Assembly: GCA_039822005.1 (NCBI GenBank) | Contig: JBCBMZ010000001.1 | Span: forward strand, 353,939 to 417,938 | Direction of reading: 5' to 3' | Origin: Pseudomonadota bacterium | Lineage (GTDB): Bacteria; Pseudomonadota; Alphaproteobacteria; Rhizobiales; Rhizobiaceae | DNA length: 64,000 nucleotides | Part shown: positions 27,246-62,598 of the stretch, in pieces | Position numbering within the stretch: the first letter of the stretch is position 1 | Layout of the letters: each line of letters begins with the position of its first letter | The notes under the pieces: generated by a model | What the model was told of the DNA's origin: nothing | Seen by the model: the letters and a program-made list of their open reading frames with translations, nothing else | Databases searched by the model: none | Position numbers and translations under genes: made by a program

Positions 27246-29123
27246 TCAGGCTCTGCCAATCGCTTTTGCCTTTTCTTCGTCGTACCACCAAAGCTGCTCC
27301 ACCGGCCAGAAATAGTCAGGCTTTGGATCCTTAAAGCCAAACATGTCCCAATAGGCAACGCGGTGATTCGCCGAGCCCCAATTTGGAATCCAGTCCCGTC
27401 GCAAACGCAAGACCCGGTCCAATACCCGCATGGCGGTCAAATGTTGTTCGCGTGTCTGAGCGCGGCCAACATGTTCGATCAACGCATCAATCAGCGGATC
27501 TGCGGTGCCTGCCCAGTTGCGCGACCCATCTAGTTTCGCTGCCGCAGACCCAAGGGTTCCTTCAAGCGTAGTAGCCGTCGGAGTGGCGCCCCACGAGGCC
27601 GCAGTTCCCACCATGTCGAAGTCGAATGTCGATGTGCGTTGCTGAAACTGCGCCGGATCAACCAGCCGCATGCTGGCATTGATGCCAACCGCGCGCATGG
27701 TTTCGACAAACGGGCCCAAGATGCGCTCAAAAACGCTGGCGCGGATCAGGATTTCAAGATCAAACGGTTCACCTGCCGCATTGCGACGTATCCCATCACT
27801 GCCGACATCCCACCCCGCTTCGGTCATGAGCCGTGTCGCTTCGCGCAAACGCGAGCGATCGCGGCCCGAGCCATTGGAAGGTGTGTACAGATAGGCCGCT
27901 TCGCGGATGCCCTCGGGAAACGTAAATTCGCTCTCCAGCTTTCCGATCAGCGCCAACTCATCGCTTTCGGGCTCACCCACAGCTTCATAGCTTGAGCCAC
28001 CAAACAGGCCGTGCCGCCGGGCATAAATGCCGAAGAACAGGTTTTCGTTGGTCCACTCAAAATCAAAGCAAAGCCCGATGGCGTCGCGCACCCGTCGATC
28101 CTTGAAGCGCTCGCGCCTTTGGTTGACCGCCCATGCCTGCATGGATGCCGCCTTTTCATCGTCAAAAAGCGTTTTCTTGACGCGTCCATCATTGACAGCG
28201 GGGAATGCATACTCCGTCGCCCAGGTCTTGGAGGTAAACTCTTCGCGCCAGTGGACTTCGCCCTTCTTGAAGGCCTCAAAGCCGGTGGTGCGTTCGGTAT
28301 AAAACTCGATACGAATGGTCTGGAAATGGCCGACACCCCGTCCGGTGCCGACTTGCCGCCCCCAATAGTCTTCTACCCGCTCATACTCAATGAAAGTCCC
28401 CTGCCGAAAGCGGCCAATTTTGTAGGCACCGGAACCTGGCGGCGGTTCTAGCGTGGATTGGTCGAATTCGCGGTTCGCGTAGTAGGTGGCAGATTGGATC
28501 GGCATGTCGACGACCGTAAGGATCGCGCGCGCGGATTGCGTACCATCAAAAACCAACGTGACAGTACGCTCGTCTTCGACAACCACTTCAGCCAGCTTCT
28601 GCAGTGGCAGGCTCAACTCCGGGTGGCCCACAGCCTTAAGAGTGTCAAAGGTGAATTTCACATCGGCCGATGTGATGGGAGAACCATCATGGAAGCGCGC
28701 AATATCGCGCAACTTGAATGTATACCGGTTACGGTCTTCGGAGATCGTAACGCTCTCGGCAACGTGGCAATAGGTGGCATCGGGCTCATCGAACGCGCGG
28801 GCCATCAAGCTGTCAAAACACATCTCAATGCGTGGCGGCGCATCTCCGCGTCGCACGAAGGAATTCAGCGTGTTGAAGGTCTGGATGTTCTGGTTGAAAT
28901 ACCAGTAGCTCGGCTGGAAATTGAAAGTACCGCCGACCGGCGCCTGCGGAGAATTATAGTCAAAATGAGAAAACCCGTCAGAATATTTCAAATCACCGAA
29001 TGCGGACAGGCCGTGCAGAGTTACACCACTTGGATTGGCTGCTCTAGATAGGGCAGGAAATAGGGTCGATGCCGTAAAGGCACCGACACCGGCACACAGG
29101 AACTGACGACGATCCAGGTTCAT
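27246..29123 (-). CDS. yejA: Family-5 extracellular solute-binding protein, YejA-like (copy 2)
   Basis: Tat-like signal MNLDRRQFLCAG. The start was set at 29123, where ATGA overlaps the upstream paralog's stop. Confidence 0.85.
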   Translation of the reverse strand: MNLDRRQFLCAGVGAFTASTLFPALSRAANPSGVTLHGLSAFGDLKYSDGFSHFDYNSPQAPVGGTFNFQPSYWYFNQNIQTFNTLNSFVRRGDAPPRIEMCFDSLMARAFDEPDATYCHVAESVTISEDRNRYTFKLRDIARFHDGSPITSADVKFTFDTLKAVGHPELSLPLQKLAEVVVEDERTVTLVFDGTQSARAILTVVDMPIQSATYYANREFDQSTLEPPPGSGAYKIGRFRQGTFIEYERVEDYWGRQVGTGRGVGHFQTIRIEFYTERTTGFEAFKKGEVHWREEFTSKTWATEYAFPAVNDGRVKKTLFDDEKAASMQAWAVNQRRERFKDRRVRDAIGLCFDFEWTNENLFFGIYARRHGLFGGSSYEAVGEPESDELALIGKLESEFTFPEGIREAAYLYTPSNGSGRDRSRLREATRLMTEAGWDVGSDGIRRNAAGEPFDLEILIRASVFERILGPFVETMRAVGINASMRLVDPAQFQQRTSTFDFDMVGTAASWGATPTATTLEGTLGSAAAKLDGSRNWAGTADPLIDALIEHVGRAQTREQHLTAMRVLDRVLRLRRDWIPNWGSANHRVAYWDMFGFKDPKPDYFWPVEQLWWYDEEKAKAIGRA

Positions 29124-30982
29124 TGCACCGCCTCCGGTTTGACCCACCAAGACTGGATATCAACACCGGTATAAGGCGGTTGGTTGTCGACAAACTCGAA
29201 TTTGTCCCACCAAGCGGCCCATTGTTCTGGCGAGTGCCATTGTGGGATATAGTAGAAGTTCCAGAGCAAAACGCGATCCAGCGCGCGGCTGGCTGCTATC
29301 AACTCAGCACGGTCTTCGGCAAAAATGATGGTTTCGATCAAGCTGTCGACAACCTCGTATTCGATGCCCGAAAGGTTGCGTGAATCGGGCGCCGACGCCG
29401 CCTCTGTTGACCAGAAATCGCGTTGCTCATTGCCGGGCGATAGCGACTGGGCAAGCACGGTTGTTGTCATGTCAAAATCGAACTGTTCAAGGCGCGAGAT
29501 GTATTGGCTGGAGTCGACGATTCGCAGCGACGCATCGATGCCAAACGTACGCAAATCTTCCACAAATTGACCGGAGATGATTTGCGCCACTTGCGATCCG
29601 CCGAGGAATTCAATGGTGAAAGGCTCACCGGCTTCATTGACCCATTGGCCGTTCTCCGGTTTCCAGCCGGCCTCTCGTAGTAAATCCGCTGCTATGCGTT
29701 GGTTGGCGCGACGGTTGGCCCGCTCGCCATTGATCGGATTTTCATAAGGAGACGTAAACACCTCTTCGGGCAAGACATTGCGAAACTCTTCCAGGATTTC
29801 CAACTCACGCCCTACCGGTAGCCCGCTGGAAGCCAGTTCACCGCCTTCAAAATAGCTGTCTGTCCGTGTCCGCAAGCTTGATAGTTGAAGCCGGTTGACG
29901 CTCTCAAAATCAAAAAGATGAAGCAATGCCTGCCGCACACGGCGGTCCTTGAACTTGTCGCGTCGCTGGTTCATCGCAAAGCCCTGCATGGGCTGCGGAC
30001 GAATGGTTTTGAACGCCCGGCGTTTGACGCGACCATCTTCAAAAGACGGGAAATTGTATTCGCTCGCCCAACGGGCAGACCTCGTCTCGGTGCGAAAATC
30101 CTGAATGCCACCCTTTTTGAACGCTTCCCATATGGGTGTGGCATCCAGGAAGTACGTGTAGGAAATCTCGTCGAAATTATAGCGGCCTTTGTTGATTGGC
30201 AGATCTGCCGCCCACCAATCCTCGACCCGTTCCCAAGTGATGGAGTTCCCAGATTCGAAAGATTTCACGCGATAGGGGCCCGAGCCGAGCGGTGGTTCCA
30301 GTGTTGGCTGTGTGATGTCGCGTGGCTCGCCGTCAGCGTTCGTGCCCGTCCACCAATGTTTGGGAAAAACCGGCATGTCGCCAAGAATTTTTGGCAGTTC
30401 GCGGTTGCCGGACTGGTCGAATGTGAACTTGATGTCCGTATCATTAAGCGCTTCAGCAGATACGACATTGGCATAATACGCACGGTAAATCTGGCTGATT
30501 TCTTTGAGCTGTTCAAATGTCCAGATGATGTCATCTGTGGTGACCGGCGCGCCATCGTGCCATCGTGCATCGGTGTTAATACGATAAGTGGCCGTTGAAT
30601 AATCATCGGGATATCGAAAAGCTGCGGCCAGGTGGGGGTGGCTGGCCGAAGGCTCATCAATGGATTGATCCGTGAGTGTTTCATATATCAGGCCACCGCC
30701 AAACCGTGCGAAGCCGGCTGCGGCGGTTCCGCGAACAATATAGGGGTTGAAGCTGTCGAACGTGCCTTGAACGGCCAAGTTCAGCGTTCCGCCTTTTGGC
30801 GCGTCGGGATTGGCGTGGTCGTAGTGCGTCCAGCCATCCTTGTATTTGCTCTCGGCGATCAATGAGTTCGTTGTTATCCAATCGCCTTGGTCTTGGGCGG
30901 CGGCGGGTTGGCTTGATGCCACAGCCGTTGCAGCTAACAGGGCAAAGCCAAGGGAAATCGAACGCATAGACATCTCCTGCAA
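29120..30982 (-). CDS. Family-5 extracellular solute-binding protein, YejA-like (copy 1)
   Basis: Sec signal ending in AAAQ and family-5 SBP features. It is a paralog of the next gene. The true start is probably one of the Met codons within the first 6 residues. Confidence 0.85.
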   Translation of the reverse strand: MQEMSMRSISLGFALLAATAVASSQPAAAQDQGDWITTNSLIAESKYKDGWTHYDHANPDAPKGGTLNLAVQGTFDSFNPYIVRGTAAAGFARFGGGLIYETLTDQSIDEPSASHPHLAAAFRYPDDYSTATYRINTDARWHDGAPVTTDDIIWTFEQLKEISQIYRAYYANVVSAEALNDTDIKFTFDQSGNRELPKILGDMPVFPKHWWTGTNADGEPRDITQPTLEPPLGSGPYRVKSFESGNSITWERVEDWWAADLPINKGRYNFDEISYTYFLDATPIWEAFKKGGIQDFRTETRSARWASEYNFPSFEDGRVKRRAFKTIRPQPMQGFAMNQRRDKFKDRRVRQALLHLFDFESVNRLQLSSLRTRTDSYFEGGELASSGLPVGRELEILEEFRNVLPEEVFTSPYENPINGERANRRANQRIAADLLREAGWKPENGQWVNEAGEPFTIEFLGGSQVAQIISGQFVEDLRTFGIDASLRIVDSSQYISRLEQFDFDMTTTVLAQSLSPGNEQRDFWSTEAASAPDSRNLSGIEYEVVDSLIETIIFAEDRAELIAASRALDRVLLWNFYYIPQWHSPEQWAAWWDKFEFVDNQPPYTGVDIQSWWVKPEAVQ

Positions 30983-34359: not shown

Positions 34360-34806
34360 TCAAAGCTGCGAAATAATCTGGTCGATAAGCGTTTGCGCCT
34401 CTTCGGCGCCATAAGTCAACGCTTCCCCGCTTCCCCAAATGGGTGATGGCCAGGCAACATCTTCTTCAAAACGAGCAATCACGTGCACGTGCAGTTGCGG
34501 CACCTGGTTGCCCAGCGCCGCCACATTCATCTTGTCGGCACCTGTCACCCGTTGCAGCAATTTGGATGTCTGCGTGATCTCAAATGTCAGCATGGTTTGG
34601 TCCAGCGGCGATAATTCATGCATCTCGCGCATGTCCGCCCGCTTGGGCACCAGGATCAGCCAGGGAAAGCGCTTGTCATTCATCAGCCGCATCCGGCAAA
34701 GGCCGATATCGGCAACGGCGAACGTGTCGTTCTCCAGTCTTCCATCAAGCGCAAAGCCAGTCATGGAGCGCATGCTATCAGCATTTTGCGATTTGGCGAC
34801 TTGCAA
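34360..34806 (-). CDS. HIT-family nucleotide hydrolase/transferase
   Basis: Histidine triad QLHVHVIARF. Confidence 0.85.
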   Translation of the reverse strand: MQVAKSQNADSMRSMTGFALDGRLENDTFAVADIGLCRMRLMNDKRFPWLILVPKRADMREMHELSPLDQTMLTFEITQTSKLLQRVTGADKMNVAALGNQVPQLHVHVIARFEEDVAWPSPIWGSGEALTYGAEEAQTLIDQIISQL

Positions 34807-34833
34807 TTTCAGCGTTGAAAGCAGATATCAGCG

Positions 34834-34936
34834 GCGGGAGGTTGGTGGTGGACGTCGCCACTCGCCAACCGGGTCAGGTCCGGAAGGAAGCAGCCCTAAC
34901 GAGCCGGGCACGGGTCGCCGTGCCAGCCTCCCACCC
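34834..34936 (+). ncRNA. ffs: Signal recognition particle RNA (4.5S, small bacterial type)
   Basis: Contains the invariant domain IV sequence GGTCAGGTCCGGAAGGAAGCAGCC. The closing helix pairs GGGAGGTTGG (34836-) with CCAGCCTCCC (-34932). The overlapping track ORFs are spurious. Confidence 0.9.
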
Positions 34937-35083
34937 CAAGACCAGCGCAGCCATGCCGTCTGCCGATAGGCATTGGTTATGAATATCGAGTAGCCATTTT
35001 CAGGATTCGCGATTACCTCCGTATAAAAGACGAAATCACAGGCTTATTGGTCTGCATTCTCATTGCGGATAAAGTGTGTTTAG

Positions 35084-36558: not shown

Positions 36559-37530
36559 ATGTCCGATCATGGCTACGAAAAAGGGCGTCTCAACCTTCCC
36601 TTTGTCGGTATACCCACATTCTCCAAGTCACCCTATATGGCGGATTGGGGTATGATTGATGCCGACGTTGCCATTCTGGGCGCGCCCTTCGATTTTGGGA
36701 CGCAATGGCGGCCCGGTGCCCGTTTTGGGCCGCGGGCGGTTAGGGAGGCATCGACCCTTTTCAGTTTTGGCCACGCGGGCGCATATGACCATGAAGATGA
36801 CGCAACTTATCTCGACGCGTCGGTTCGGATGGTCGACATAGGGGACGCCGATATCATCCACACCAAGACCGAAGAGAGCCACGCCAACATCAGGCACGGG
36901 GCCATCAAAATCCTCGAGGCGAGTGCGCTGCCCGTCATCATTGGCGGTGACCATTCGATCAATATCCCCTGTATCGAAGCATTTGAAAAAGACTGCGATG
37001 CCAAAGGGCCGATCCATATCGTCCAGATCGATGCGCATCTGGACTTTGTCGATGAACGTCACGGCGTCACCGCAGGGCACGGTAATCCCATGCGCCGCGC
37101 GATTGAAAAGCCGTATGTTTCCGGGATGACGCAGCTCGGTATCCGCAATGTGTCATCTACCGCCAAGGAGGGATATGATGATGCCCGCGCCCGCGGGTCC
37201 GATATTCTTTCGGTGCGACAGGTTCGCAAGCTCGGCACCGAGGCCGTACTCGCACGGATGCCGGAAGGTGCCCGCTATTACGTAACCATTGACATCGACG
37301 CATTTTGCCCGTCCATCGCACCGGGTACCGGAACGCCGAGCCATGGCGGCTTTCTCTACTATGATGTGCTGGAAATTCTGCAAGGCCTGACGAGGCGGGG
37401 CGATGTCGTCGGCATCGATCTGGTGGAGGTGGCACCCGCCTATGACCCGACCGAAAGTACGCAAATCCTGGCGGCACAGCTATTGATGAATTTCATCGGC
37501 TTTGTTTTTCATGCGCGTTCAAGGGCCTGA
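36559..37530 (+). CDS. Ureohydrolase (agmatinase/guanidino-acid hydrolase family)
   Basis: Mn-binding motifs GGDHS, DAHLD and TIDIDAFCP...GTGTP. The start was set at the ATG at 36559, which has a GGAGA SD. Confidence 0.88.
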   Translation: MSDHGYEKGRLNLPFVGIPTFSKSPYMADWGMIDADVAILGAPFDFGTQWRPGARFGPRAVREASTLFSFGHAGAYDHEDDATYLDASVRMVDIGDADIIHTKTEESHANIRHGAIKILEASALPVIIGGDHSINIPCIEAFEKDCDAKGPIHIVQIDAHLDFVDERHGVTAGHGNPMRRAIEKPYVSGMTQLGIRNVSSTAKEGYDDARARGSDILSVRQVRKLGTEAVLARMPEGARYYVTIDIDAFCPSIAPGTGTPSHGGFLYYDVLEILQGLTRRGDVVGIDLVEVAPAYDPTESTQILAAQLLMNFIGFVFHARSRA

Positions 37531-37597
37531 AAATGCGCGGTCAGGGGCATGTGGGGCATAGCTCGCGTTGGCACCTTTCTACAAAAGCCAATAAGCC

Positions 37598-37611
37598 TTG
37601 ACAAATGTCAA
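37598..37611 (+). promoter_or_regulatory. Palindromic operator / -35 element TTGACAAATGTCAA upstream of the transketolase-RLP operon
   Basis: 6-bp inverted arms (TTGACA/TGTCAA) with a 2-nt spacer, 37 nt upstream of the GTG start. The 13-mer TTGACAAATGTCA recurs at 52592. The 10-mer TTGACAAATG recurs at 56046-56055 on the minus strand. Confidence 0.55.
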
Positions 37612-37647
37612 CGGCGGAGCTTTTCTCGCGCGCACGGGAGACAAAAA

Positions 37648-38583
37648 GTGCTGAACGAGAAAACCACCGAAGAAGTGGCGCTGGGCATTCGCCGCCGCGT
37701 TTTTGAACATTCCATGCGCAACAATGGCGGCTATTTGAGCCAGGCCTGCTCGGCCGCTGAACAGCTCGCCTTTTTGTACAATGAAGCGCTCAATCTCGGT
37801 CAGCCAACACTGCCGCCCGTGCCCAAACCGTTTGGAGGCGTGCCGTCCGCTGACAACACGGATTATCATACGGGAGCCGGCTATAATGGCCCGTTTGAGG
37901 CGCACTATGATCGACTGTTTATCGCACCAGCCCACTACGCGTTGGTGGCTTACGCAACGCTCATCGAGGTCGGACGGATGGATCCGGCGGGCCTTGAAAT
38001 GTTCAACAAGGATGGCTCCTCCGTCGAGATGATCGGCGCGGAGCATTCCCCCGGCATGGAAGTGCACAATGGCACGCTTGGCATTGGTCTTTCCACGGGC
38101 GCAGGCCTCGCCTTCGGCCGCAAGCGACGCGGCGAGACGGGTCAGGTCTGCGTGTTCATGTCAGACGGTGAAGTGCAGGAAGGCCAAACCTGGGAGGCCG
38201 TGCAGGCTTGCGCCCACCATGGCATCGACAATGTCTGGGCGCTCATGGATGTTAACGACCAGCAATGTGATGGAGCGATGGATAGCGTGATGGAAGTGCG
38301 CGATATCAAGGCCAAGTTCGAAAATTTCGGCGCGGTGTGCGTGGAGATTGACGCTCATGATTTGGATGCGATGCGCCAAGCCAAAGCGACATCTCACCAG
38401 GGACAGCCACTCATCATCCTTGCGCGTTCATCGCCGACACAAGGCATGGCGTTCTTGCAAAGACGGTTTCCCCGCCTGCACTATGTGCGCTTCAAATCGG
38501 ACGATGAGCGCGCTGAGATGAATGCGGCGATTGCCAAAGAGTTGGGCGTTCAGCCTGTCGATTACGGGCAAGGGGGGCACTGA
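37648..38583 (+). CDS. Transketolase, N-terminal (ThDP/PP-binding) subunit
   Basis: ThDP-binding region (MSDGEVQEGQTWEA...DVNDQQ). Split-TK architecture. GTG start at 37648 with a GGGAG SD. Confidence 0.85.
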   Translation: MLNEKTTEEVALGIRRRVFEHSMRNNGGYLSQACSAAEQLAFLYNEALNLGQPTLPPVPKPFGGVPSADNTDYHTGAGYNGPFEAHYDRLFIAPAHYALVAYATLIEVGRMDPAGLEMFNKDGSSVEMIGAEHSPGMEVHNGTLGIGLSTGAGLAFGRKRRGETGQVCVFMSDGEVQEGQTWEAVQACAHHGIDNVWALMDVNDQQCDGAMDSVMEVRDIKAKFENFGAVCVEIDAHDLDAMRQAKATSHQGQPLIILARSSPTQGMAFLQRRFPRLHYVRFKSDDERAEMNAAIAKELGVQPVDYGQGGH

Positions 38584-38584
38584 C

Positions 38585-39589
38585 ATGGTCGAAATGGTCA
38601 GCCGCCCATACGCGTCAGCATTTGAAAAATTCGCCGCAGGAAATCCGGACATACTTTGCCTGTCCGCCGATCTGACCTCGTCCTGCGAGATTGATGGTTT
38701 TCGTGACCGGCACCCCGAGCAATTTGTCTCTTTGGGTATGGCAGAGCAAAACATGATGAGCTTTGCCGGTGGGCTAGGCTTGGCCGGTTTCCGCCCGTTT
38801 CTTCACTCGTTCGGCGTCTTCCTTTACCGCCGCCCCTATGATCAATTGATGGCGTCTGTCGCCTACCCGAGGCGCAAGGTGCGCCTCATGGGATTTTTGC
38901 CGGGCATTACAACGCCGGGGGGCATGACGCACCAAGCCATTGAAGATATCGCAGTGATGCGTTCAATTCCGAACATGACGATCCTTGAAACCGGCGATGC
39001 CACGGAAGTGGAAAGCATTTGCGAAGCTGCCGACTCCATCGATGGTCCGGTCTATTGTCGCGTGTTGCGCGGGTCTGTACCGCGGTTGTTTGATACGCCC
39101 ATTGCAGTAGGCCACATGCGCGAATTGTCATTGGGCAGCGACGTCCTGATCGTAACATCCGGCATTACCACCGAAGAAGCGCTGCGCGCCCGCCAGGCGC
39201 TAGAAGATGCCGGAGTGTCGATCCGCCACGTCCACATCAACACCATCAAGCCTTTCGACGAAGACGCGCTGCTCGACCATATTGGCTCTGTATCCAAAGG
39301 CGTCATTGTACTGGAAAACCATGTCACCGAGGGAGGCGTTGGTTCGCTCGTCGCCGAGATTATGGCCGACAATGGCGCCGGCAAAAAGCTCGTGCGGCTC
39401 GGGTTGAAAGACACCTACGCCCATGGCGGATCGCGACCCTATCTGATGAAGCATTACGGCCTCGACGCGTCTGCCTTGGTGGCCGGCATTGAGAGACTTT
39501 TGGGCGCTGATTTGAGCGTTGCCGACGAGCAACTCACCGAAGCGCGCGTCGATGCGGTCCACTCAGCTGTCAAGGCGGAGGCACTGTAA
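38585..39589 (+). CDS. Transketolase, C-terminal (pyrimidine-binding) subunit
   Basis: GMAEQNMMSFAGGLGLAGFRPF motif. The ATG lies 1 nt after the stop of the N-terminal subunit gene. Confidence 0.85.
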   Translation: MVEMVSRPYASAFEKFAAGNPDILCLSADLTSSCEIDGFRDRHPEQFVSLGMAEQNMMSFAGGLGLAGFRPFLHSFGVFLYRRPYDQLMASVAYPRRKVRLMGFLPGITTPGGMTHQAIEDIAVMRSIPNMTILETGDATEVESICEAADSIDGPVYCRVLRGSVPRLFDTPIAVGHMRELSLGSDVLIVTSGITTEEALRARQALEDAGVSIRHVHINTIKPFDEDALLDHIGSVSKGVIVLENHVTEGGVGSLVAEIMADNGAGKKLVRLGLKDTYAHGGSRPYLMKHYGLDASALVAGIERLLGADLSVADEQLTEARVDAVHSAVKAEAL

Positions 39590-40720
39590 GTGCCGACGGA
39601 TGGTCGTTTTCGCGTCACCTACTTGATTGTTGCGGGTGACGAAAAAACAGCGCGAGAACGCGCCGACGCTGTTGCTTATGAGCAAACTGTCGAGGTGCCG
39701 GATGATGTCATTCCCGACGGCTACATCCGCGATGAAATCGTTGGCCAGATTGAGGCCGTTGAACCTTCGGTTGATGGACGCTGGCGCACGACCATTTCCT
39801 ACTCACCGGACAGTGTTGGTCTTGAGGTGATCCAACTGTTGAACGTCATGTTCGGCAACTCGTCTATCCAGCAGGGCGTTGCGGTTGACGGCTTTAAGCC
39901 GGGCCCGGTCATAAGCGCGCGTTTTGGCGGCGCGCGTTTTGGCGTGAAAGGCTTGCGCGAACTGACGGGCACCAAACGTGGCGGCTTGATTTCACCCGTC
40001 ATCAAACCGCAAGGCTCGTCCGTCGCGGCCTTAGCCGGCGTCGCCGGTCGATGCGTTGCGGGCGGTGCCGACATCATCAAGGATGACCACGGGTTAACCA
40101 ACCAGAAGATGGCCCCGTTTGCCGAGCGACTACAAATTGTCGGCGATGCTGTGCGCGAGGCCAATGCCAAAAATGGGCGCTCGGCGCTTTATTTCATAAA
40201 TATAAGCGGCTGGTCGGGCAATCCGGTGGAAGAAGCATTTCAAGCCAAGGAAGCCGGTGCGGGTGGCGTTCTCATCATGCCGGGACTGCTGGGCTATGCG
40301 CTCGCGCACCGGCTGTCATCCGACCCGGACTTTGGCCTGCCCATCATGACGCATCCGTCATTTACTGGTCCGTTCGTTTTGAACGCCGAAACCGGCATGA
40401 CTCACGCCATGCTGTACGGCACGGTTCAACGCTTGATGGGGGCTGACATTTCGGTGTTTCCCAATGTCGGTGGGCGCTTTGGTTTCTCCCGCGAGGAATG
40501 CCTCTCGATTGCCGGCGCCTGCCGTGATGCAGACGGGATCGGGCAACCCATGATGCCCTCGCCAGGCGGTGGCATGAGCGTGGATCGTGCGGCGGATATG
40601 GTGGAGATGTATGGCCAGGATGTCGTTTATCTGATCGGCGGCAGCCTTTTGCGCGCGGGCGACAAGATCGGCGACGCCGTCAAGGCGATGCGTGACGCGG
40701 TGGATGCGGCTCAAAGTTAG
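39590..40720 (+). CDS. RuBisCO-like protein (form IV RLP), short 376-aa variant
   Basis: RuBisCO large-subunit TIM-barrel signatures: VIKPQG (cf. KPKLG), GGADIIKDDH (cf. GG.DF.KDDE) and MTHPSF (cf. the His-rich strand). The GTG start immediately follows the transketolase stop codon. Confidence 0.8.
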   Translation: MPTDGRFRVTYLIVAGDEKTARERADAVAYEQTVEVPDDVIPDGYIRDEIVGQIEAVEPSVDGRWRTTISYSPDSVGLEVIQLLNVMFGNSSIQQGVAVDGFKPGPVISARFGGARFGVKGLRELTGTKRGGLISPVIKPQGSSVAALAGVAGRCVAGGADIIKDDHGLTNQKMAPFAERLQIVGDAVREANAKNGRSALYFINISGWSGNPVEEAFQAKEAGAGGVLIMPGLLGYALAHRLSSDPDFGLPIMTHPSFTGPFVLNAETGMTHAMLYGTVQRLMGADISVFPNVGGRFGFSREECLSIAGACRDADGIGQPMMPSPGGGMSVDRAADMVEMYGQDVVYLIGGSLLRAGDKIGDAVKAMRDAVDAAQS

Positions 40721-40881
40721 GGGATTTTCTGCTTGCGTTTGTTGAAGCGAGGCTGGTCCACCCCGTTCACAGGTCTCGGAGCGAAGTGTGCATTGGTCGC
40801 AAATATCTCAATGTCGGCTAGCCATATCCAAAAGGTGACTGTCATCACTTAATCTTCGCAAAAGCCCATTAAACGCCCCAC

Positions 40882-41904
40882 ATGAGTATTCGCGTCACAT
40901 CTGTCACAAAATCGTTCGGCCTTTGCACGGCCGTGGATGACATCTCATTTGATATTCCGGACGGCGTCTTCTTTTGTGTTGTAGGTCCATCGGGATGCGG
41001 AAAGAGTACGCTCTTGCGTCTCATTGCCGGATTGGACACGCCCGACAGCGGAACTGTTTTGCTTGATGGAAAAACCGTTTTTGATGATCAGCAGAACATT
41101 CCGCCTGAAGACCGGCAGGTGGGTGTCGTCTTTCAGTCTTATGCTTTATGGCCGCATCTGAGCGTGCTTCGCAACGTTGCATTTCCTTATGAAGCAAAGG
41201 GGGTTGCTCGGTCGGTTGCCCAAAAGCAGGCGGCAATCCATCTGGACACGGTGTCTTTGACGGAGTTTGCGGACCGCAGGCCGGAAGCGCTATCGGGGGG
41301 TCAGCGGCAGCGCGTTGCGCTGGCCCGGTGTCTGGCCGGAGATGCCCGAACGATCCTGATGGATGAACCCTTGGCCAATCTCGATCCACATCTTCGGCAT
41401 TCCATGGAGGCCGAGCTGCGTGCCTTTCACGACCGATCCGGTGTCACGACGCTGTTCATCACACATGATCAGCGCGAGGCTATGGCGCTTGCCGATTTGA
41501 TGGCCGTGATGGATGGCGGGCGGATTTTGCAGATTGGCACGCCACAAGAGATCTATGATCGGCCGACAAACATCAGCGTCGCCCGCTTCATTGGACGCGG
41601 AACTTTGCTTGCCTCCAACGTTGTGAATGGAAGAGCAACACTATTTGGCCAGGACGTCCCGGTGCTTGGCCGTGGAAGCGGGGTGTGCAACGTATTTGTC
41701 AGGCCCAAACAAGTGGCGATCGATCAGAGCGGATGGCCGGCCAAGGTGACCTCCGTGGCTTATCGTGGCGGGCATTGGGAGGTAGCAGCGACGGGTAAGC
41801 ACGATGCGCAAGAGGCCACAGCCTTGGTCGATCTCGACAGCCCGGTTCGTCTCGGCGAAACACTTTTTCTGAGCGTTTCCAGCGGCTGGGTTGTTCCCGA
41901 TTAG
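40882..41904 (+). CDS. ABC transporter ATPase (FbpC/PotA-like)
   Basis: Walker [10 protein letters not shown], signature [13 protein letters not shown], and a C-terminal TOBE-like tail. Confidence 0.88.
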   Translation: MSIRVTSVTKSFGLCTAVDDISFDIPDGVFFCVVGPSGCGKSTLLRLIAGLDTPDSGTVLLDGKTVFDDQQNIPPEDRQVGVVFQSYALWPHLSVLRNVAFPYEAKGVARSVAQKQAAIHLDTVSLTEFADRRPEALSGGQRQRVALARCLAGDARTILMDEPLANLDPHLRHSMEAELRAFHDRSGVTTLFITHDQREAMALADLMAVMDGGRILQIGTPQEIYDRPTNISVARFIGRGTLLASNVVNGRATLFGQDVPVLGRGSGVCNVFVRPKQVAIDQSGWPAKVTSVAYRGGHWEVAATGKHDAQEATALVDLDSPVRLGETLFLSVSSGWVVPD

Positions 41905-50506: not shown

Positions 50507-52570
50507 CTAGCGCAGAGCTGCTTCAATATTCCCGCCATCAACGGTCATGACGTGGGCGGTGGTTCGTTCCGCTTTTGCTAGTGCCACAAAGGCATCGGCC
50601 ACATGGCGCGCTTCAACTTCTTTGCGCAAGAGATTGCCCGCCATATAGTCAGCTTCGGAAACACCGCGCGCTGATGCGCGGGATTTGATGAAATCCTCGT
50701 CCAACAGCCCCGACCTGATCCGGTCGGCGTTCACGCCGTTGACGCGGATATGGTCGCCGCCAAGTTCCAGCGCGAGTTGGCGTATCAAAAAGAAGGTCGC
50801 CGCTTTCGGCAGTCCGTAGGCCCCGAAACCTTTACCGGGATTGACCGCCTGTTTCGACACGTTGAAAAGGATTTGACCGCCATATCCCTGACGACGAAAA
50901 ACGCCGGTTGCCGCCTTTGCCATCTCGCGATGCGCAAAAAAGTTCACCTCAAATGACTGTCGAAGGGCGGGATCATCCAGTTCCAGAATATTGCCCTGCA
51001 ATGCGTAGCCTGCGTTCGAAACCAGAACATCAATACCTCCGAAGCGGCCTGCCACCGCTTCAATGGCCGACGCGGCAGCGCCCTCCTGTGCAAGATCTGC
51101 GGTAACTGGAAACGCACTTGCGCCCAAGTTCGCTCCCGCGTTGAGGCAAGCCTCTTCATCTCGATCAATCAACGCTATTGCGGCACCTTGCGCGGCAAAA
51201 ACCTTGGCCGTTGCAAGACCAATCGCGCCCGCACCACCTGTCACCGCAACCACTTGACCGGTGAAAGGTTTTGTACTGGCCTTGGATAATTTGGCCTGTT
51301 CCAAAGACCAATATTCCATGTCGAAAAGATCATCCGTGCCGATCGGATGAAAACCGCCGGCAGCTTCGCCCAGCGACATGACTTCAATCGCTTGCTCCGC
51401 GATATCGGCGGCCGTCGATGCTGCCTTGGCGTCTTTCCCGATGCCTGCGATCCCCACACCCTCTATCCACGCGACGCACGGGTGCGGCTCCAGCATGATT
51501 TTGTGCCCACCGACCCGCAAATTTTGCTGATCAAACATGGCGCGGTAAGCGTCGGCATAGGATTGCACTTTGCCTTTTAGCGTCTCGCTACCCGCAATTA
51601 TGTCATCTTGCGTCAAAACCAGCATTCGCCCTTTTGTTCGAATGACATGATCGGGCGAACCAACACCGCGCTGGCTGAGCGCAGTCAAATCGCTGTGCGC
51701 CAGGAATTGCGAAATGATTGGTCCGGTTCGTAGGTCTGTCACTACAGGTATGGGATCTTTATCATGGTGGTGGCCACGCAGGTCGGCTATCGCGCCGCGC
51801 ACAACAGGCAGAATTTGCGCTGCAGTCTTGTGCGGTGTCCTTGAGCGATGGACACTCGTTGAAAATGTGCGGCCGTTCGCTCTGTGTGCGAGCCATTCCT
51901 CCACAAGGTTGGTATGCTCGATTACACGGCCATAGCTTTCTTTTGCGGTGTCGCCGAAGGTGAAATGGCCATGCTTTAACAGAACCATACCGTCACATTC
52001 GGGGTTGGCATCAAACACGTCTGCGGCTTTTTTGGCGAGCGCAAAGCCGGGCATGATGTAGGGCACGCAAACCAATCGCCCCTCAAAAATCTCGTCTACC
52101 GCTGTTTCGGCATTGGGCAAATTGGCCAGTGCCAGAAAAGCCGTGGCATGGGTGTGGTCGACAAAACGATGCGGCAGATAGGCATGCAGCAATGTTTCCA
52201 CCGATGGATTGGGCGACATTGTATCAATTAGATTGGCGCGCTGCACATTGACCATGTCTTCATCTGACAGGGTATTAAGTTCCCGTAACGCCATCAAAGG
52301 CTCCATACGCACACCGGGTAAACCAGGTGCTTCAATGGTATCCAGATCCCAGCCGGACCCTTTGACATGCAGAACATCGATTGGGGTGCCAAACAGATCG
52401 CGGCGCGCAGTCTTGACCGAAGTGTTGCCGCCCCCATGCATAACCAAATCAGGATCGGCGCCGATGATACGCGATGAATATACCCTTTCCGCAACGAGCC
52501 TGTCGGCCTCATTATCGGCGGTGGACGCCCATTTGGCAGCGTCCAAATCGTTCCACAAATTGGGTCGCAT
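50507..52570 (-). CDS. Bifunctional class II aldolase-like / short-chain dehydrogenase fusion (RhaD-RhaEW/YuxG-like)
   Basis: N-terminal aldolase/adducin-like region of about 430 aa. C-terminal SDR with TGGAGAIG, NAG and YGLPK (YxxxK). Confidence 0.85.
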   Translation of the reverse strand: MRPNLWNDLDAAKWASTADNEADRLVAERVYSSRIIGADPDLVMHGGGNTSVKTARRDLFGTPIDVLHVKGSGWDLDTIEAPGLPGVRMEPLMALRELNTLSDEDMVNVQRANLIDTMSPNPSVETLLHAYLPHRFVDHTHATAFLALANLPNAETAVDEIFEGRLVCVPYIMPGFALAKKAADVFDANPECDGMVLLKHGHFTFGDTAKESYGRVIEHTNLVEEWLAHRANGRTFSTSVHRSRTPHKTAAQILPVVRGAIADLRGHHHDKDPIPVVTDLRTGPIISQFLAHSDLTALSQRGVGSPDHVIRTKGRMLVLTQDDIIAGSETLKGKVQSYADAYRAMFDQQNLRVGGHKIMLEPHPCVAWIEGVGIAGIGKDAKAASTAADIAEQAIEVMSLGEAAGGFHPIGTDDLFDMEYWSLEQAKLSKASTKPFTGQVVAVTGGAGAIGLATAKVFAAQGAAIALIDRDEEACLNAGANLGASAFPVTADLAQEGAAASAIEAVAGRFGGIDVLVSNAGYALQGNILELDDPALRQSFEVNFFAHREMAKAATGVFRRQGYGGQILFNVSKQAVNPGKGFGAYGLPKAATFFLIRQLALELGGDHIRVNGVNADRIRSGLLDEDFIKSRASARGVSEADYMAGNLLRKEVEARHVADAFVALAKAERTTAHVMTVDGGNIEAALR

Positions 52571-52591
52571 GTTCTATCTCCCACGCCTTGT

Positions 52592-52605
52592 TTGACAAAT
52601 GTCAG
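52592..52605 (+). promoter_or_regulatory. Operator / -35 element TTGACAAATGTCAG in the divergent aldolase-SDR / sorC promoter region
   Basis: Same 13-mer as at 37598. A related half-site, TGTCAAATGT, lies at 52613-52622. It is 22 nt from the aldolase-SDR start and 36 nt from the sorC start. Confidence 0.55.
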
Positions 52606-52640
52606 CAAGGTCTGTCAAATGTTTACCCGGAGGAATTGGT

Positions 52641-53615
52641 ATGTCATTAGAGGCGTCCCGGCGCACACAACGCATGGTTAGTGGTGAGGACATCGTCATC
52701 GAAGCTGCGTGGCTGTACTACCACGACAGCTTGAACCAGAACGATATCGCGGAACGGCTTGGCGTATCGCGCGCCACTGTGGTCAATTATCTGCAAGAAG
52801 CACGTGAGCGCGGTTTTGTGCAAATCAGCATGTCGGCCGACGCTTTCAGCGGACACCGCCTTGCAATCGCAATCAAAGAGCTTTTTGGCTTGGACGATGT
52901 ACTCGTAATTCCCGACGGCAAACTATCTGTCGATCAAGCGGCGAACCGCGTTGCCCGCGCTGCTGCACGTTGGTTGCCTTCCATGCTTGCACCGGGCGAC
53001 CGATTGGGCGTTGCGTGGGGCAAGACGATCTACGACGTTGCGGAAAATTTGGAACCCGTCGCCATACCCGATCTGACGGTGCTCCAGTTGGTCGGGTCAA
53101 TGGCGACGCCTTACGGATTTTCCGCCGATGTTTGCTCCTCCTATGTGGCGCGGCGCTTGTTTGCGCGTTGTATCAATTTGCATGTACCGGCGATCGTCTC
53201 GACGCCGGAAGTTGCCGACGTCTTGCGCCGCGAAACCCTCATCGCCAGCCAGTTTGATGAGATAACGCGCTTCAACAAGACGCTGTTTGCTGTTGGCTCG
53301 TGTTTGCCAGACAGCCACGTGGTTTCGTCCGGCGTGGCAACGGTTGCCGAACTGCAATGGTATGTGGATCAAGGAGCGACCGGTGTGCTGTGCGGGCGGT
53401 TTATTGACCGCAATGGCAAAGGCATTGAAGGCCCGCTCGATGCGCGCATGATGGGCGTTTCAGTCGATATGATGCGCAGTCGCGAAACGGGGATTTTGGT
53501 TTCGGTCGCAGCCGATCGCGTTCCTGCTACGGTGGCAGCCTTGCGCGGTGGCTACGCGACACACCTTGTCACCGATCAGTCGAGCGCGGAAAAGCTGTTG
53601 ACTTCAAGCAGCTGA
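52641..53615 (+). CDS. SorC/DeoR-type sugar-binding transcriptional regulator
   Basis: N-terminal HTH ([24 protein letters not shown]) and a C-terminal sugar-phosphate-binding domain. The start was set at the ATG at 52641, which has a GGAGGA SD. Confidence 0.85.
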
Positions 53616-54707
53616 ACGCCTTTCGGGGAACAGAGTTAAAAGACCTTCCGGGCTCGCATCACATACACCGCGTTCCGTAATCAGGCCGGTGATGAGACGG
53701 GCCGGCGTCACATCAAAGGCCGGGTTGCCGCCGGGCGTGCCGTCGGGCGAAATTTGCACAAATCCCGTCTCGCCATTTTCCTGTTTGCCGAAAATGTGCG
53801 TGACCTCCCGTCCATCACGCTCCTCAATCGGAATTTCCTTCAAGCCATCCTTGACGGTCCAATCAATGGTCGATGATGGCAACGCAACATAGAAGGGAAC
53901 GCCATTGTCGCTGGCGGCCAACGCTTTGAGATAGGTCCCGATTTTGTTGCAAACGTCGCCACGCGCTGTCGTTCTGTCGGTGCCAACGATCACCATATCC
54001 ACCTGACCATGCTGCATCAGATGTCCTCCAGCATTATCGACAATCAAATGGTGCGGAATGTCATTGCCGACCATCTCCCACGAAGTAAGCTGTGCGCCCT
54101 GATTGCGCGGCCTCGTCTCGTCCACCCAAACATGGATCGCAATGCCGGCTTCCTGCGCGTGATACATCGGCGATGTCGCCGTTCCCCAATCGACCGTCGC
54201 GAGCCAACCCGCATTGCAATGGGTCAGCATATTGACAGGCTCGCCGGGCCCTTTGGTTTCTGCAATCCGTTTGACGATCTCCAATCCGTGGACGCCGATC
54301 ATTCGGTTGCACGCGGCATCTTCATCGCAAATCAGCGCCGCCTTTTTAAACGCTGCCTCGGCACGATCTGAAGGTGCCAGAGAGTCCAATTCTGAACGCA
54401 TCGCATCGAGTGCCCAGCGAAGATTGATCGCCGTCGGTCTGGTCGCATGCAAAATATCATAGGCATGGTCGAGCGCGCCATCGGAGGGGTCACGCGCCAT
54501 TTGCTCGGCAACGCCATAGGCTGCGGTCGCGCCAATCAGGGGCGCGCCCCTTACCCACATGTCACGAATGGCCGTTGCAAACGCATCAAGAGACTTGATG
54601 GAGACGATCTTGAACTCATGGGGCAGCCAGCGCTGATCGATGATGCGCACGTCGCCCGTTTCAGAATCGCGCCATATGGAGCGGTAGTGGGTGCCTTGAA
54701 CCTTCAT
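53604..54707 (-). CDS. mtnA: S-methyl-5-thioribose-1-phosphate isomerase family (MtnA/DrdI-like)
   Basis: eIF-2B-related family: [42 protein letters not shown]. Confidence 0.88.
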
Positions 54708-55969
54708 ACTTTGCCTCCCGTTTCCATTTGACGGGCCATCGCAACCACGCGATCCACGCCGCCAATTGCTTTGCGGTTGAGCACCAGTGAGCGTCCAAGT
54801 CTGAGCGCGCGCTCCTCCAGGATAGCCCGTTCGTCTTCATCGGCAATCGTATCCAGTTCAGCGACGTGCGCGAGGCCAAGGATGCGCCTGTGCATTTCGA
54901 TACCGGCAAATCCCAAAAGATCCTCCAGAATTTCGTTTAGCAATTGCTCAAGCGCTGCATCTGCAGCTTCCGGCTGACCTTGATCTTCGTACAAGGAATG
55001 AGGGTAGAGGATGCCCGTACGTTCGGTTCGCCAAAGCGTTGCAAATTCGTCGCAAAAAGCGGTCCACGTATCGGTTGTTTGCTGGAGGATCCACTCTTGG
55101 TAGCCCGCGCAGACGTCCATGTCTTTCAGGTGGGCGGACGCTGCCTGGTAGGCCATCAGATAGTTGCCGATCAGCATGCCGATATCGAAACCAAAGGGAC
55201 CGTAGAAGGCAAATTCCGGGTCGATCATACGCGCTTCATCGGGTGTTGCCATGATGGAACCCGCATGCAAATCGCCGTGGCACATCGTTTCCTGTTTGGC
55301 GGTGAAAGCCCGCTTCATGTGCTGTGCTTCAACTTTTAGCAAATGATCGGCGCGCAACTCTGCAACTACACTATCCAACTGAGGGGTTGTGTGCCGGTTC
55401 ATTTCCGCATCGAAATAGGGGTCGGTGAAAACAAGGTTTTCAGTAATGTCGCAAAGTTCGATGTTGCCCGAAAAAAGCGCCACATCTTTTTTTTTGTCAC
55501 CGGCATTCATGGACAGATCTGAGCCGCGAAACGCCGTGCGCGCGCAGAACCGACCCATTGTCTCGCCCAGCTTGGCAACCTTTTGGCCAGCCATCATATG
55601 ATGGCGCAATATAATATGCGGATGGAGGCGTTCCATCACAATCAACGCCTGCTCTTCGTCAAAGTGCAGGATCGCAGGAACGGATCCAGGGTCGCGCTCC
55701 TGCTGGCGTTTTAGGGCATGATATTCGAAAAACGCGCGCTTGAGCGGTAGCGGCCAGGAATCGCCGACCAAACGCACATACGGCAGCGCCTGCTTGACGA
55801 TCACTGAACCCTTCGTGCCCTCAACGATGAAGACTAGATTAAGATTACCGTCTCCCACTTCCTGAACGGACCAGGATGCGGGATCCTCTCCTACGACACT
55901 GGTCAAAGCATCCAGCGAACCAAGCCGTACAGGAAGCGTTTCCTGTGACAGTGCTTCATATTGCGACAC
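54704..55969 (-). CDS. mtnK: S-methyl-5-thioribose kinase family (MtnK/DrdK-like)
   Basis: [11 protein letters not shown] and KQALPYVR signatures, catalytic HGDLHAGS. There is a 4-nt overlap with mtnA. Confidence 0.88.
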
Positions 55970-56041: not shown

Positions 56042-56075
56042 CAGGCATTTGTCAATATAGCTTGACTTTTGTCAG
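56042..56075. promoter_or_regulatory. Two copies of the TTGAC-N4-GTCA element in the divergent mtnK / ABC importer promoter region
   Basis: The minus strand at 56055-56042 reads TTGACAAATGCCTG. The plus strand at 56062-56075 reads TTGACTTTTGTCAG. Confidence 0.5.
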
Positions 56076-56106
56076 GTGCACTGTTGTGATTGCCTTGGGA
56101 GGAACT

Positions 56107-61837: not shown

Positions 61838-62598
61838 TGGCCACCATCCACATTATAGGTCTGGGCAACGATGTAGTTGGCTTCATCACTTGCAAGAAAC
61901 ACAGCCATACCGGTCAGGTCGTCGGGGGTGCCCATGCGTCCGAATGGTACGCCTGCGCCGACCTCCTTCTTTTTCTGACCGGGCGCCTTTTTTTCGAACT
62001 TGGCGAAAATGGCGTCCACACCGTCCCAGTGCTCGCCATCAACCACACCTGGCGAGATCGCGTTCACGTTGATGCCATGTTTGATGAGATCAAGGCCAGC
62101 CGATTGGGTGAGCGAAATGACGGCCGCTTTGGTCGCGCAATAGATAGCCACCAAGGGTTCGCCGCGACGACCCGCTTGGCTAGCCATATTGATGATCTTC
62201 CCTTTGATGCCATAGTCGACCATGTGCCGAGCAACGGCTTGCATCGTAAATAGCGTGCCAGACACATTGATTGAGAATGTCCGGTCAAAATCACGTCGTT
62301 CAATCTCCACGATCGGTGCGGCGGTAAAGATCGCGGCGTTGTTGATCAAAATGTCGATCTGGCCAAAACTCCTTACACACTCGTCGACTGTGTCATCTAT
62401 GCTCTCTTGTGACGTGACATCCAGCTTGACCGCGGTAGCATGATCACCGATTTCAGCTGCGGTGTCTTGCGCGCCGACAAAGTCGATGTCGGCAATAGCG
62501 ACCCGCGCACCTTCTCGTACATAGGCCTGCGCAAATGCCTTGCCGATGCCTCGTGCGGCACCGGTTATGACTGCGGTTTTGCCAGCCAAACGGTGCAT
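61825..62598 (-). CDS. smoS: SDR-family sorbitol (L-iditol) dehydrogenase
   Basis: TGAARGIG, NNAA and YCATK motifs. The operon context supports the call. Confidence 0.8.
   Translation of the reverse strand: MHRLAGKTAVITGAARGIGKAFAQAYVREGARVAIADIDFVGAQDTAAEIGDHATAVKLDVTSQESIDDTVDECVRSFGQIDILINNAAIFTAAPIVEIERRDFDRTFSINVSGTLFTMQAVARHMVDYGIKGKIINMASQAGRRGEPLVAIYCATKAAVISLTQSAGLDLIKHGINVNAISPGVVDGEHWDGVDAIFAKFEKKAPGQKKKEVGAGVPFGRMGTPDDLTGMAVFLASDEANYIVAQTYNVDGGQWMS

Follow-up and report, generated by a model that had tools for sequence, protein, structure and literature searches.

A 64,000-nt stretch of an alphaproteobacterial genome (Pseudomonadota bacterium, Rhizobiaceae; assembly GCA_039822005.1, contig JBCBMZ010000001.1, positions 353,939 to 417,938 of the forward strand; hereafter the window) contains three tightly packed genes, tkN, tkC and rlp, which encode the two subunits of a divergent split transketolase (TK)-like enzyme and a form IV RuBisCO-like protein (RLP). 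Comparison with related genomes and metagenomes suggests that this trio is a branch of a salvage or catabolic island for 5-methylthioribose and probably 5-deoxyribose, in which the product of the RLP would be cleaved by the TK-like enzyme; we give this reading about an even chance of being correct. Both sugars are remnants of S-adenosylmethionine (SAM) by-products.

The tkN-tkC-rlp trio and its island

The three genes of the trio are as follows (ThDP, thiamine diphosphate).

37648-38583, + strand: tkN, ThDP/Mg-binding subunit (TK-N) of the divergent split transketolase-like enzyme; 311 aa, PF00456
38585-39589, + strand: tkC, pyrimidine-binding and C-terminal subunit (TK-C) of the split transketolase-like enzyme; 334 aa, PF02779 and PF02780
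39590-40720, + strand: rlp, form IV RuBisCO-like protein of a TK-linked clade; 376 aa, PF00016 (58.5 bits vs a cut-off of 30.1); by sequence probably a 5-substituted ribulose-1-phosphate 1,3-isomerase

The stop codon of tkN (TGA, 38581-38583) is separated by 1 base from the ATG of tkC at 38585, with AAGGGGGG just 5′ of this ATG, and the stop codon of tkC (TAA, 39587-39589) directly abuts the GTG of rlp at 39590 (0 nt), with GGAGG eight bases 5′. A Shine-Dalgarno-like motif precedes each of the three genes. The start of tkN was placed at GTG 37648 rather than ATG 37549, as orthologue alignments open at residues 1-3 of the 311-aa product. The coordinates and the gaps of 1 and 0 nt given in the initial annotation were borne out by the list of open reading frames (ORFs), by Pfam and by direct reading of the junctions, and its spacers of 117 nt before tkN (37531-37647) and 161 nt after rlp (40721-40881) are both right. 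A scan of the whole window at Rfam gathering thresholds returned a single hit, the signal recognition particle (SRP) RNA, and thus no riboswitch upstream of tkN; a permissive Rfam scan of 37400-37750 gave no match. The two spacers that flank the trio hold no meaningful direct or inverted repeats that might betray an insertion. Sites resembling promoters or terminators were no more frequent around the trio than in shuffled sequence.

To describe the conservation of the pairing, genomes (one per species) were scanned with an alignment of RLP relatives as query, which yielded 343 relatives; the best 80 of these (54-88% RLP identity) were compared, with the window proteins placed by tblastn. TK-N and TK-C genes lie directly 5′ of the RLP gene on the same strand in 70 of the 76 loci with enough upstream sequence, and the distance from the tkN stop to the tkC start is between -4 and +14 nt in 68 of the 72 loci scored. 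The tight unit proposed in the initial annotation is thus conserved in order and strand, and the loss of the TK neighbourhood in related genomes, which it had named as grounds for giving up the idea, was not what we found. The six RLP loci without TK genes are genuine: they contain no runs of N, and ORF maps show other genes at the TK position. Among these RLPs of the same clade, two loci from Hyphomicrobiales metagenome-assembled genomes (MAGs; L068, 2642-13209, and L073, 2606-13210) have the order ABC-rlp-aldolase/short-chain dehydrogenase (SDR), divergent from mtnK-mtnA, and in Roseitalea sp. (L028) the RLP gene lies between an amidohydrolase/PNP pair and mtnK-mtnA; therefore, the RLP can work without a TK partner.

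A metagenome scan queried with TK-N detected the TK family in at least 497 metagenomic stretches, and 80 loci with 49-88% TK-N identity were analysed. Of 40 complete TK pairs, 34 are followed by an RLP gene, with identities as low as 52% for TK-N and 40% for the RLP (our script gave 32 and 8; L117 and L147, in which the RLP gene overlaps the end of tkC, were reassigned). Several metagenomic loci form single arrays of the type mtnK-mtnA-(rbsD)-tkN-tkC-rlp(-aldolase/SDR), mtnK-mtnA-tkN-tkC-rlp is one co-directional array in several loci, and the RLP-TK linkage persists across several different gene orders. In one metagenome contig (Ga0180009_10000064, 3122-12101; L152), mtnK-mtnA-rbsD-tkN-tkC-rlp-aldolase/SDR form one co-directional array. 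Its host appears to be a low-GC organism outside the Alphaproteobacteria; since this array stands in a non-proteobacterial-looking organism, the module is not confined to Alphaproteobacteria. The array is followed in this contig by a 293-aa ORF resembling a class I aldolase of the DhnA/LsrF type. Median identity across the island is highest for the TK subunits (83% and 82%), followed by MtnA (76%), MtnK (62%) and the RLP (58%).

The genes that recur around the trio elsewhere are present in the window at 50.5-60.3 kb, where the initial annotation had overlooked them together with the rest of the pathway that they suggest.

50507-52570, - strand: bifunctional class II aldolase/SDR; NF006192 870 bits vs 639, PF00596 and PF00106
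52599-53615, + strand: SorC/DeoR-type sugar-phosphate-responsive regulator; PF04198 Sugar-bind and helix-turn-helix domain
53604-54707, - strand: mtnA, S-methyl-5-thioribose-1-phosphate isomerase family; TIGR00512 416 bits vs 279
54704-55969, - strand: mtnK, S-methyl-5-thioribose kinase family; TIGR01767 492 bits vs 275
56062-57630, + strand: ribose-type ABC importer ATPase with two ABC domains; PF00005 twice
57627-58688, + strand: ribose-type ABC importer permease; RbsC-like NCBIfam matches, PF02653 in orthologous islands
58718-59767, + strand: ribose-type ABC importer periplasmic binding protein; PF13407
59841-60284, + strand: RbsD/FucU-family mutarotase; tblastn 51% identity to the Pseudooceanicola RbsD/FucU homologue

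Neighbours within 10 kb of the RLP were counted in the 60 genome loci that have 9 kb or more of sequence on each side: mtnK is present in 56, mtnA in 55, the SorC regulator in 43 and the aldolase/SDR, often lost to the flank limit, in 41. With MtnK, MtnA and the class II aldolase all above their cut-offs, the gene set of the dihydroxyacetone phosphate (DHAP) shunt is complete at 50507-55969. The aldolase is a putative methylthioribulose-1-phosphate or 5-deoxyribulose-1-phosphate aldolase, and the fusion protein would provide a DHAP-shunt-type cleavage together with an aldehyde redox step. The importer ATPase has AraG/RbsA-like proteins as its top NCBIfam matches, under the cut-offs, and its gene is also found in the islands of Hoeflea, Maritalea, Roseitalea and Pseudooceanicola. 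The binding protein is 77% identical to that of the Pseudooceanicola island, and its top PDB match over the full length is 4ry8 (E 6.8e-64), an entry entitled ‘5-methylthioribose transporter solute binding protein TLET_1677’; it is a probable binder of methylthioribose or a 5-deoxypentose. An AlphaFold model of this protein, made without an alignment, was poor (predicted local distance difference test score 41), and we took only the PDB titles from the Foldseek listing and ignored the structural scores.

Gene order varies among the islands. In Hoeflea, tkN-tkC-rlp is followed by a convergent ribose-type ABC operon, mtnK-mtnA, sorC and the aldolase/SDR gene; in Maritalea and Pseudooceanicola, the aldolase gene, sorC, mtnA and mtnK are divergent from ABC-rbsD/fucU-tkN-tkC-rlp. 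The RbsD/FucU gene lies directly 5′ of tkN-tkC-rlp in many genomes (PF05025 at this site in L083, L084 and L090). Bmp-type ABC transporters are typical of nucleoside uptake. A Roseitalea porphyridii MAG (L084, 1-8000) carries, directly 5′ of tkN, one such transporter, an Amidohydro_1 gene, a PNP_UDP_1 (nucleoside phosphorylase/nucleosidase) family gene and two SDR genes, which suggests uptake and cleavage of whole 5′-deoxynucleosides such as 5′-methylthioadenosine (MTA) or 5′-deoxyadenosine. In the window, the trio lies about 20 kb from its usual site after rbsD, behind an agmatinase-family gene. After the island, a mannitol dehydrogenase-family gene, an SDR gene and an ABC ATPase gene with a TOBE domain occupy the opposite strand (60338-63605, -). 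These genes mark the break where tkN-tkC-rlp lies in related genomes; because tkN follows rbsD elsewhere and a mannitol dehydrogenase gene on the other strand does so here, the trio has been displaced in this lineage.

Active sites of the RLP and the transketolase-like enzyme

The top PDB match of the RLP is 3qfw (E 3e-73, 250 bits, full length), an RLP with the same sequence as a Rhodopseudomonas palustris protein; against the RLP, unnamed representatives reach as much as 427 bits. The description of the DeepYkr clade (PMC5893883) and the presence of an RLP-cupin gene pair fit the identification of 3qfw as RLP1 rather than RLP2. RLP1 of R. palustris, a member of the DeepYkr clade, has been shown to be a methylthioribulose-1-phosphate 1,3-isomerase (PMC5893883), and the RLP is roughly 45% identical to it. 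Both belong to a radiation of ~370-aa RLPs, for which we found 253 clusters at E <= 1e-30 among 1.84 billion representative proteins. In a neighbour-joining tree without bootstrap, the TK-linked RLPs form one clade and RLP1 belongs to another, far apart within this radiation, with MtnW as a distant outgroup to the whole. For P0122, the nearest representative outside the TK-linked clade, 1.5 kb of surrounding sequence is available.

The RLP is of form IV, having the RuBisCO large-chain catalytic domain and lacking residues essential for carboxylation. With the numbering of spinach RuBisCO (verified at 20 sites), Lys175, Lys201, Asp203 and His294 are kept, and the replacements are Lys177 by Gln141, Glu204 by His167, Arg295 by Pro256, His327 by Val289 and Lys334 by Arg296. 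The resulting signature (K139, Q141, K164, D166, H167, H255, P256, V289 and R296) is common to the RLP1 clade: 119 TK-linked and 117 RLP1-clade sequences alike have K, Q, K, D, H, H, P, V/I and R at columns 175/177/201/203/204/294/295/327/334. The RLP is therefore not an orphan in kind, as the initial annotation had implied, and falls within the ~370-aa radiation that includes RLP1/DeepYkr. Its separation from MtnW and OiaC/OiaX, by contrast, was confirmed, with all NCBIfam scores far under the cut-offs: the MtnW models NF007095 and TIGR03332 give 165.4 vs 409 and 121.5 vs 513.6, and the RLP is also far under the type III RuBisCO cut-off. Membership of OiaC/OiaX was considered and ruled out (NF042437, 63.6 vs 700). 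The motif of the RLP is KDDH and that of MtnW, which keeps Glu204, is KDDE. Placement in an already characterised clade with the same gene context would have told against novelty; we found a distinct clade and a different context. In R. palustris and Rhodomicrobium, the RLP1 gene overlaps with that of a cupin, and mtnK, mtnA and TK genes are absent from the vicinity; no cupin homologue was found in the window or in more than 80 TK-type loci.

For the TK-like enzyme, the top PDB matches come from the split TK of Carboxydothermus hydrogenoformans (6yak, N-terminal chain, E 2e-29 for TK-N; 6yaj, E 1e-55 for TK-C). In the transketolases of yeast and E. coli, the C1-hydroxyl of the donor is bound by His100/103, the phosphate by His461/469 and the hydroxyl beside this phosphate by Asp469/477, and His26/30 participates in proton transfer at the C3-OH. 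An alignment of 73-74 orthologues with E. coli TktA, which supplies the numbering used here, and Dxs (both from the K-12 genome) revealed replacements of His26, His100 and Asp469, and a HMMER alignment that of His461. In TK-N, Y29 (His26), M128 (His100), S172-D173-G174...N203 and H96 (His66) are invariant in the 73 genome orthologues, and E178 (Glu160) is kept. In about 80 metagenomic relatives, Y29, H96, D173 and N203 are constant, position 172 is S or T, and position 128 is mostly M, with L or Q in a few and never His; the signature holds down to 49% identity. E. coli Dxs likewise has no His at the His100 column. In TK-C, an invariant G112 replaces Asp469 and L105 replaces His461, the latter pairing coming from the HMMER alignment with 6yaj only; E54 (Glu411) and H116 (His473) are kept, and so are three phosphate ligands, S33 (Ser385), R162 (Arg520) and R7 (Arg358; R/K in relatives). 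The ThDP/Mg motif and the cofactor-activating Glu are invariant in the genome orthologues. TK-N also contains an insertion of ~30 residues (…LGQPTLPPVPKPFGGVPSADNTDYHTGAGYNGPFEAHY…; residues ~45-85) between the first two motifs that E. coli TktA does not have.

Because four canonical active-site residues are replaced (His26 by Tyr, His100 by Met, His461 by Leu and Asp469 by Gly), TK-N and TK-C are not a canonical transketolase, and the label used in the initial annotation has to be amended. The general models agree: neither subunit reaches the cut-off of the transketolase model NF004559 (124.9 for TK-N and 188.1 for TK-C vs 488), and for the dxs model TIGR00204, TK-C scores 160.8 vs 465.95 and TK-N has no match. 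The best 120 database relatives of TK-N are all at least 79% identical to it and, where their sources name them, are called only ‘transketolase’.

Proposed pathway and competing explanations

The catalytic steps that follow are predicted from gene content, linkage and residue patterns. MtnK and MtnA would convert imported methylthioribose or 5-deoxyribose into 5-methylthio- (or 5-deoxy-) D-ribulose-1-phosphate, and the RLP would carry out a 1,3-isomerisation to 1-methylthio- (or 1-deoxy-) D-xylulose-5-phosphate. The split ThDP enzyme would then cleave the C2-C3 bond, yielding glyceraldehyde-3-phosphate and a ThDP-bound C2 fragment, which could be released as (methylthio)acetaldehyde or acetaldehyde, passed to an acceptor, or converted by beta-elimination of methanethiol into acetyl-ThDP. 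The TK-like enzyme would take the place of the cupin 1-methylthioxylulose-5-phosphate methylsulfurylase of the MTA-isoprenoid shunt, alongside the DHAP-shunt branch. We favour this sequence of RLP and ThDP-dependent cleavage because the conserved neighbourhood includes mtnK (56/60) and mtnA (55/60); the initial annotation had likewise let the RLP turn the MtnA product into a 1-substituted xylulose-5-phosphate for a ThDP enzyme to cleave, and the conserved mtnK/mtnA neighbourhood now suggests such a route.

Several observations weigh against this proposal. The island already has a full DHAP shunt (kinase, isomerase and aldolase), so that an RLP/TK branch from the same intermediate appears redundant. 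In transketolase, Asp469 and His461 contact the glyceraldehyde-3-phosphate part of the substrate; both are lost in TK-C, whereas Dxs keeps the Asp, and therefore the substrate may not be a simple xylulose-5-phosphate analogue. Identity between the RLP and the characterised isomerase is only roughly 45%, and the RLP loop after the His294 equivalent (H255; residues ~257-276) is six residues longer than in R. palustris RLP1, an MtnW-like length that could bear on the substrate 5-substituent. In the window, the trio stands apart from the other genes of the island, and no riboswitch was found. Moreover, the RLP occurs without TK in 6 of 76 genomes and the TK pair without RLP in 6 of 40 cases; therefore, neither protein strictly needs the other.

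The RLP-less TK pairs have a context of their own. In Paracoccus seriniphilus (CP067132.1; L091, 3380-13643) and at least four metagenomic loci, the TK pair is divergent from a BisC-family molybdenum S/N-oxide reductase gene, with a TK-N about 76-80% identical to that of the window. Two of the loci (L091 and L129) also carry genes for a XylB-like kinase, a Zn-dependent alcohol dehydrogenase and an AraD-like epimerase of the class II aldolase family, to which L091 adds genes for a sulfatase and a SorC regulator. If the L-arabinose pathway is taken as a guide, the XylB-like/AraD-like set would end in a modified D-xylulose-5-phosphate. This context may therefore represent a second route to the same modified xylulose-5-phosphate, possibly from a sulfoxide-bearing sugar or polyol, which fits a TK-like enzyme specialised for a modified xylulose-5-phosphate reached by two routes. 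Hybrid loci also occur, one with an RLP gene beside AraD-like and dehydrogenase genes (L113) and one with mtnA beside the molybdenum enzyme (L132). The RLP-less TK loci that we recorded are L091, L104, L111, L114, L115, L121, L126, L129 and L130.

A bolder version of the last step, which we consider unlikely and put forward tentatively, makes the TK-like enzyme a new ThDP-dependent lyase. Phosphoketolase provides a precedent, in which a beta-substituent leaves the ThDP-bound C2 enamine and acetyl-ThDP results; homology of TK-N or TK-C to phosphoketolase was not detected. The lyase would convert 1-methylthio-D-xylulose-5-phosphate into glyceraldehyde-3-phosphate with phosphoketolase-like expulsion of methanethiolate, and acetyl-ThDP would go on to acetate or acetyl-phosphate. 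The replacements of His100 by Met, His461 by Leu and His26 by Tyr would then line a pocket for the methylthio group. If true, methylthioribose sulfur and all of its carbon would be recovered without oxygen or glutathione, by a route found widely among marine and soil Alphaproteobacteria and also in other phyla.

Two other explanations share most of the gene content with the proposed pathway. One keeps the same kind of chemistry but assumes that the sugar is another imported 5-modified or unusual pentose, handled by MtnK/MtnA paralogues, rather than a SAM by-product. The ABC importer and the RbsD/FucU mutarotase point to an external sugar as growth substrate, MtnK/MtnA paralogues specific for 5-deoxyribose are known (PMC6079011), and the S/N-oxide reductase and sulfatase of the RLP-less TK context hint at oxidised or sulfated substrates. 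Against it, MtnK and MtnA clear the NCBIfam equivalog cut-offs for the methylthioribose enzymes, the closest solved relative of the binding protein was deposited as a 5-methylthioribose binder, and genes to take up and cleave nucleosides, which MTA or 5′-deoxyadenosine would lead one to expect, are present in the Roseitalea island; we regard this alternative as a serious possibility, if on balance an improbable one. The other is a methionine salvage of the Bacillus type, in which the aldolase domain would be an MtnB-like dehydratase, the RLP an MtnW-like enolase acting on 2,3-diketo-5-methylthiopentyl-1-phosphate, and the ThDP enzyme would act on the diketone or enol product. The island does contain mtnK, mtnA and an Aldolase_II-family protein, the family to which MtnB belongs (PMC6302742); the top NCBIfam match of the RLP is the MtnW model PRK09549 (E 1.4e-48), and its loop after His255 is of MtnW length. 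Yet the MtnW scores fall far under the cut-offs (165 vs 409, 121 vs 513), MtnW keeps Glu204 where the TK-linked RLPs, like RLP1, have His, and MtnW stands as a distant outgroup in the tree. Nor does the aldolase fit: the aldolase/SDR is a full-length relative of the RhaD-type aldolase-dehydrogenase (NF006192, 870 bits) with MtnB models absent among its best 25 families, and the stand-alone Pseudooceanicola aldolase scores best as FucA, with MtnB at 75 and 68 bits, under the cut-offs. As mtnX, mtnC and mtnD were also not seen in the islands examined, we consider this explanation very doubtful.

The remaining alternatives start from the immediate surroundings or from the names of the genes. From the ureohydrolase through TK and RLP to the downstream ABC ATPase, the genes of the window lie on the same strand with spacers of 117 and 161 nt and no convincing terminator between them, which would allow one guanidino- or amino-sugar pathway; the initial annotation had included both flanking genes in the module. 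That membership did not hold up. Neither a ureohydrolase homologue nor a PhnS2-like binding-protein homologue occurs within 10 kb of the RLP in any of the 60 loci with full flanks (0/60 each), even in relatives with an RLP 87-88% identical, and the genes before tkN in most genomes are rbsD or sugar ABC genes. At the level of conservation such a module is refuted, and we leave it next to no likelihood. A housekeeping transketolase of the pentose-phosphate pathway or Calvin cycle, placed by chance beside a RuBisCO homologue, would match the source annotations, which read just ‘transketolase’ and ‘ribulose-bisphosphate carboxylase large chain’. It is hardly credible, given that the RLP lacks RuBisCO Lys177, Glu204, Arg295, His327 and Lys334, the TK-like enzyme lacks His26, His100, His461 and Asp469 and is far under the transketolase equivalog cut-offs, and it is mtnK and mtnA, rather than genes of the Calvin cycle, that recur as conserved partners.

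Neighbouring genes, known systems and significance

The remaining annotated features of the window are listed below.

36559-37530, same strand as the trio: agmatinase-type ureohydrolase, arginase family; PF00491 E 1.8e-76
40882-41904, same strand as the trio: PhnT2-like ABC ATPase; PF00005
41901-43601 and 43601-44578, strand opposite to the ATPase: ABC fused permease and binding protein, respectively; PhnS2/T2/U2-like
34837-34934, + strand: bacterial small SRP RNA; Rfam RF00169, 57 bits
23309-30982, - strand: YejABEF-like (microcin C / oligopeptide type) ABC transporter operon

The ureohydrolase clears the agmatinase model TIGR01230 (182.8 vs 174.3), and its ORF has an alternative start at TTG 36523. 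The 3′ ends of the ABC ATPase and permease genes share 4 nt. The ureohydrolase and the PhnS2/T2/U2-like transporter are unrelated neighbours of the trio and look like a separate uptake and hydrolysis locus into or beside which the trio moved. A 176-aa ORF (34439-34969) that overlaps the SRP RNA is probably spurious, and the YejABEF-like operon has two large binding-protein genes in tandem (27246-29150 and 29120-30982).

Among known systems, the MTA-isoprenoid shunt of Rhodospirillum rubrum and R. palustris is similar in having an RLP of the ~370-aa radiation with an identical active-site signature that is fed by the MtnA product, and in R. palustris this RLP coexists with a DHAP-shunt aldolase branch (PMC5893883), as it does here. 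It differs in that the RLP described here belongs to a separate clade, has no cupin and is coupled to a divergent split ThDP enzyme; the RLP1-cupin pairs stand alone, whereas the trio is part of an import/catabolic island with mtnK and mtnA. The DHAP shunt for 5′-deoxynucleosides and 5-deoxypentoses (mtnK/mtnP, mtnA and ald2; drdK-drdI-drdA) likewise has a kinase, an isomerase and a class II aldolase in one island, and it serves externally acquired sugars in some bacteria (PMC10986504, PMC6079011). As described, it includes neither an RLP nor a ThDP enzyme. In the present islands the aldolase mostly forms a fusion with an SDR, and the gene set is extended by the RLP, the TK-like enzyme, an ABC importer and a mutarotase. 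Bacillus MtnW (YkrW) is also a form IV RLP linked to mtnK and mtnA and gives the top NCBIfam match, but it has Glu204 in place of the His found here, and mtnB, mtnX and mtnD were not seen in the islands examined.

AptA/AptB of apiose catabolism and the sulfofructose transketolase SqwGH are split-gene transketolases. The split TKs, of which that of C. hydrogenoformans (6yak/6yaj) provides the closest solved structures, share two subunits, the ThDP/Mg motif and the activating Glu with TK-N/TK-C. The known ones use ordinary 1-hydroxy ketose donors, whereas the present family has Tyr/Met/Leu/Gly at His26/His100/His461/Asp469 and, in TK-N, the ~30-residue insertion between the first two motifs. Dxs offers a mechanistic analogy only: its product is the 1-deoxy analogue of the substrate proposed here, and it too lacks a His at the His100 column, but it keeps Asp469, and TK-N and TK-C fall under all dxs cut-offs.

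The RLP family, the MtnK and MtnA steps and the DHAP shunt are already known. For the pairing of RLP and TK with mtnK/mtnA and for the atypical TK family, no paper was found in the searchable full-text literature, though older RLP literature may mention the neighbourhood, and its gene-neighbourhood figures may show transketolase subunits beside some marine alphaproteobacterial RLPs. Most form IV RLPs are without a known function, and a large TK-linked clade now gains a precise substrate proposal. The TK-like family is sharply defined and very conserved and is annotated everywhere as ‘transketolase’, yet its active site argues otherwise; assigning its reaction would add an activity to the transketolase/DXS/phosphoketolase group and correct thousands of annotations. 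For the organisms themselves, the island points to the uptake and use of methylthioribose, 5-deoxyribose and their nucleosides by marine Alphaproteobacteria, including Hoeflea, Maritalea, Roseitalea and Paracoccaceae, a route by which dissolved organic sulfur and carbon might be turned over and methanethiol released.

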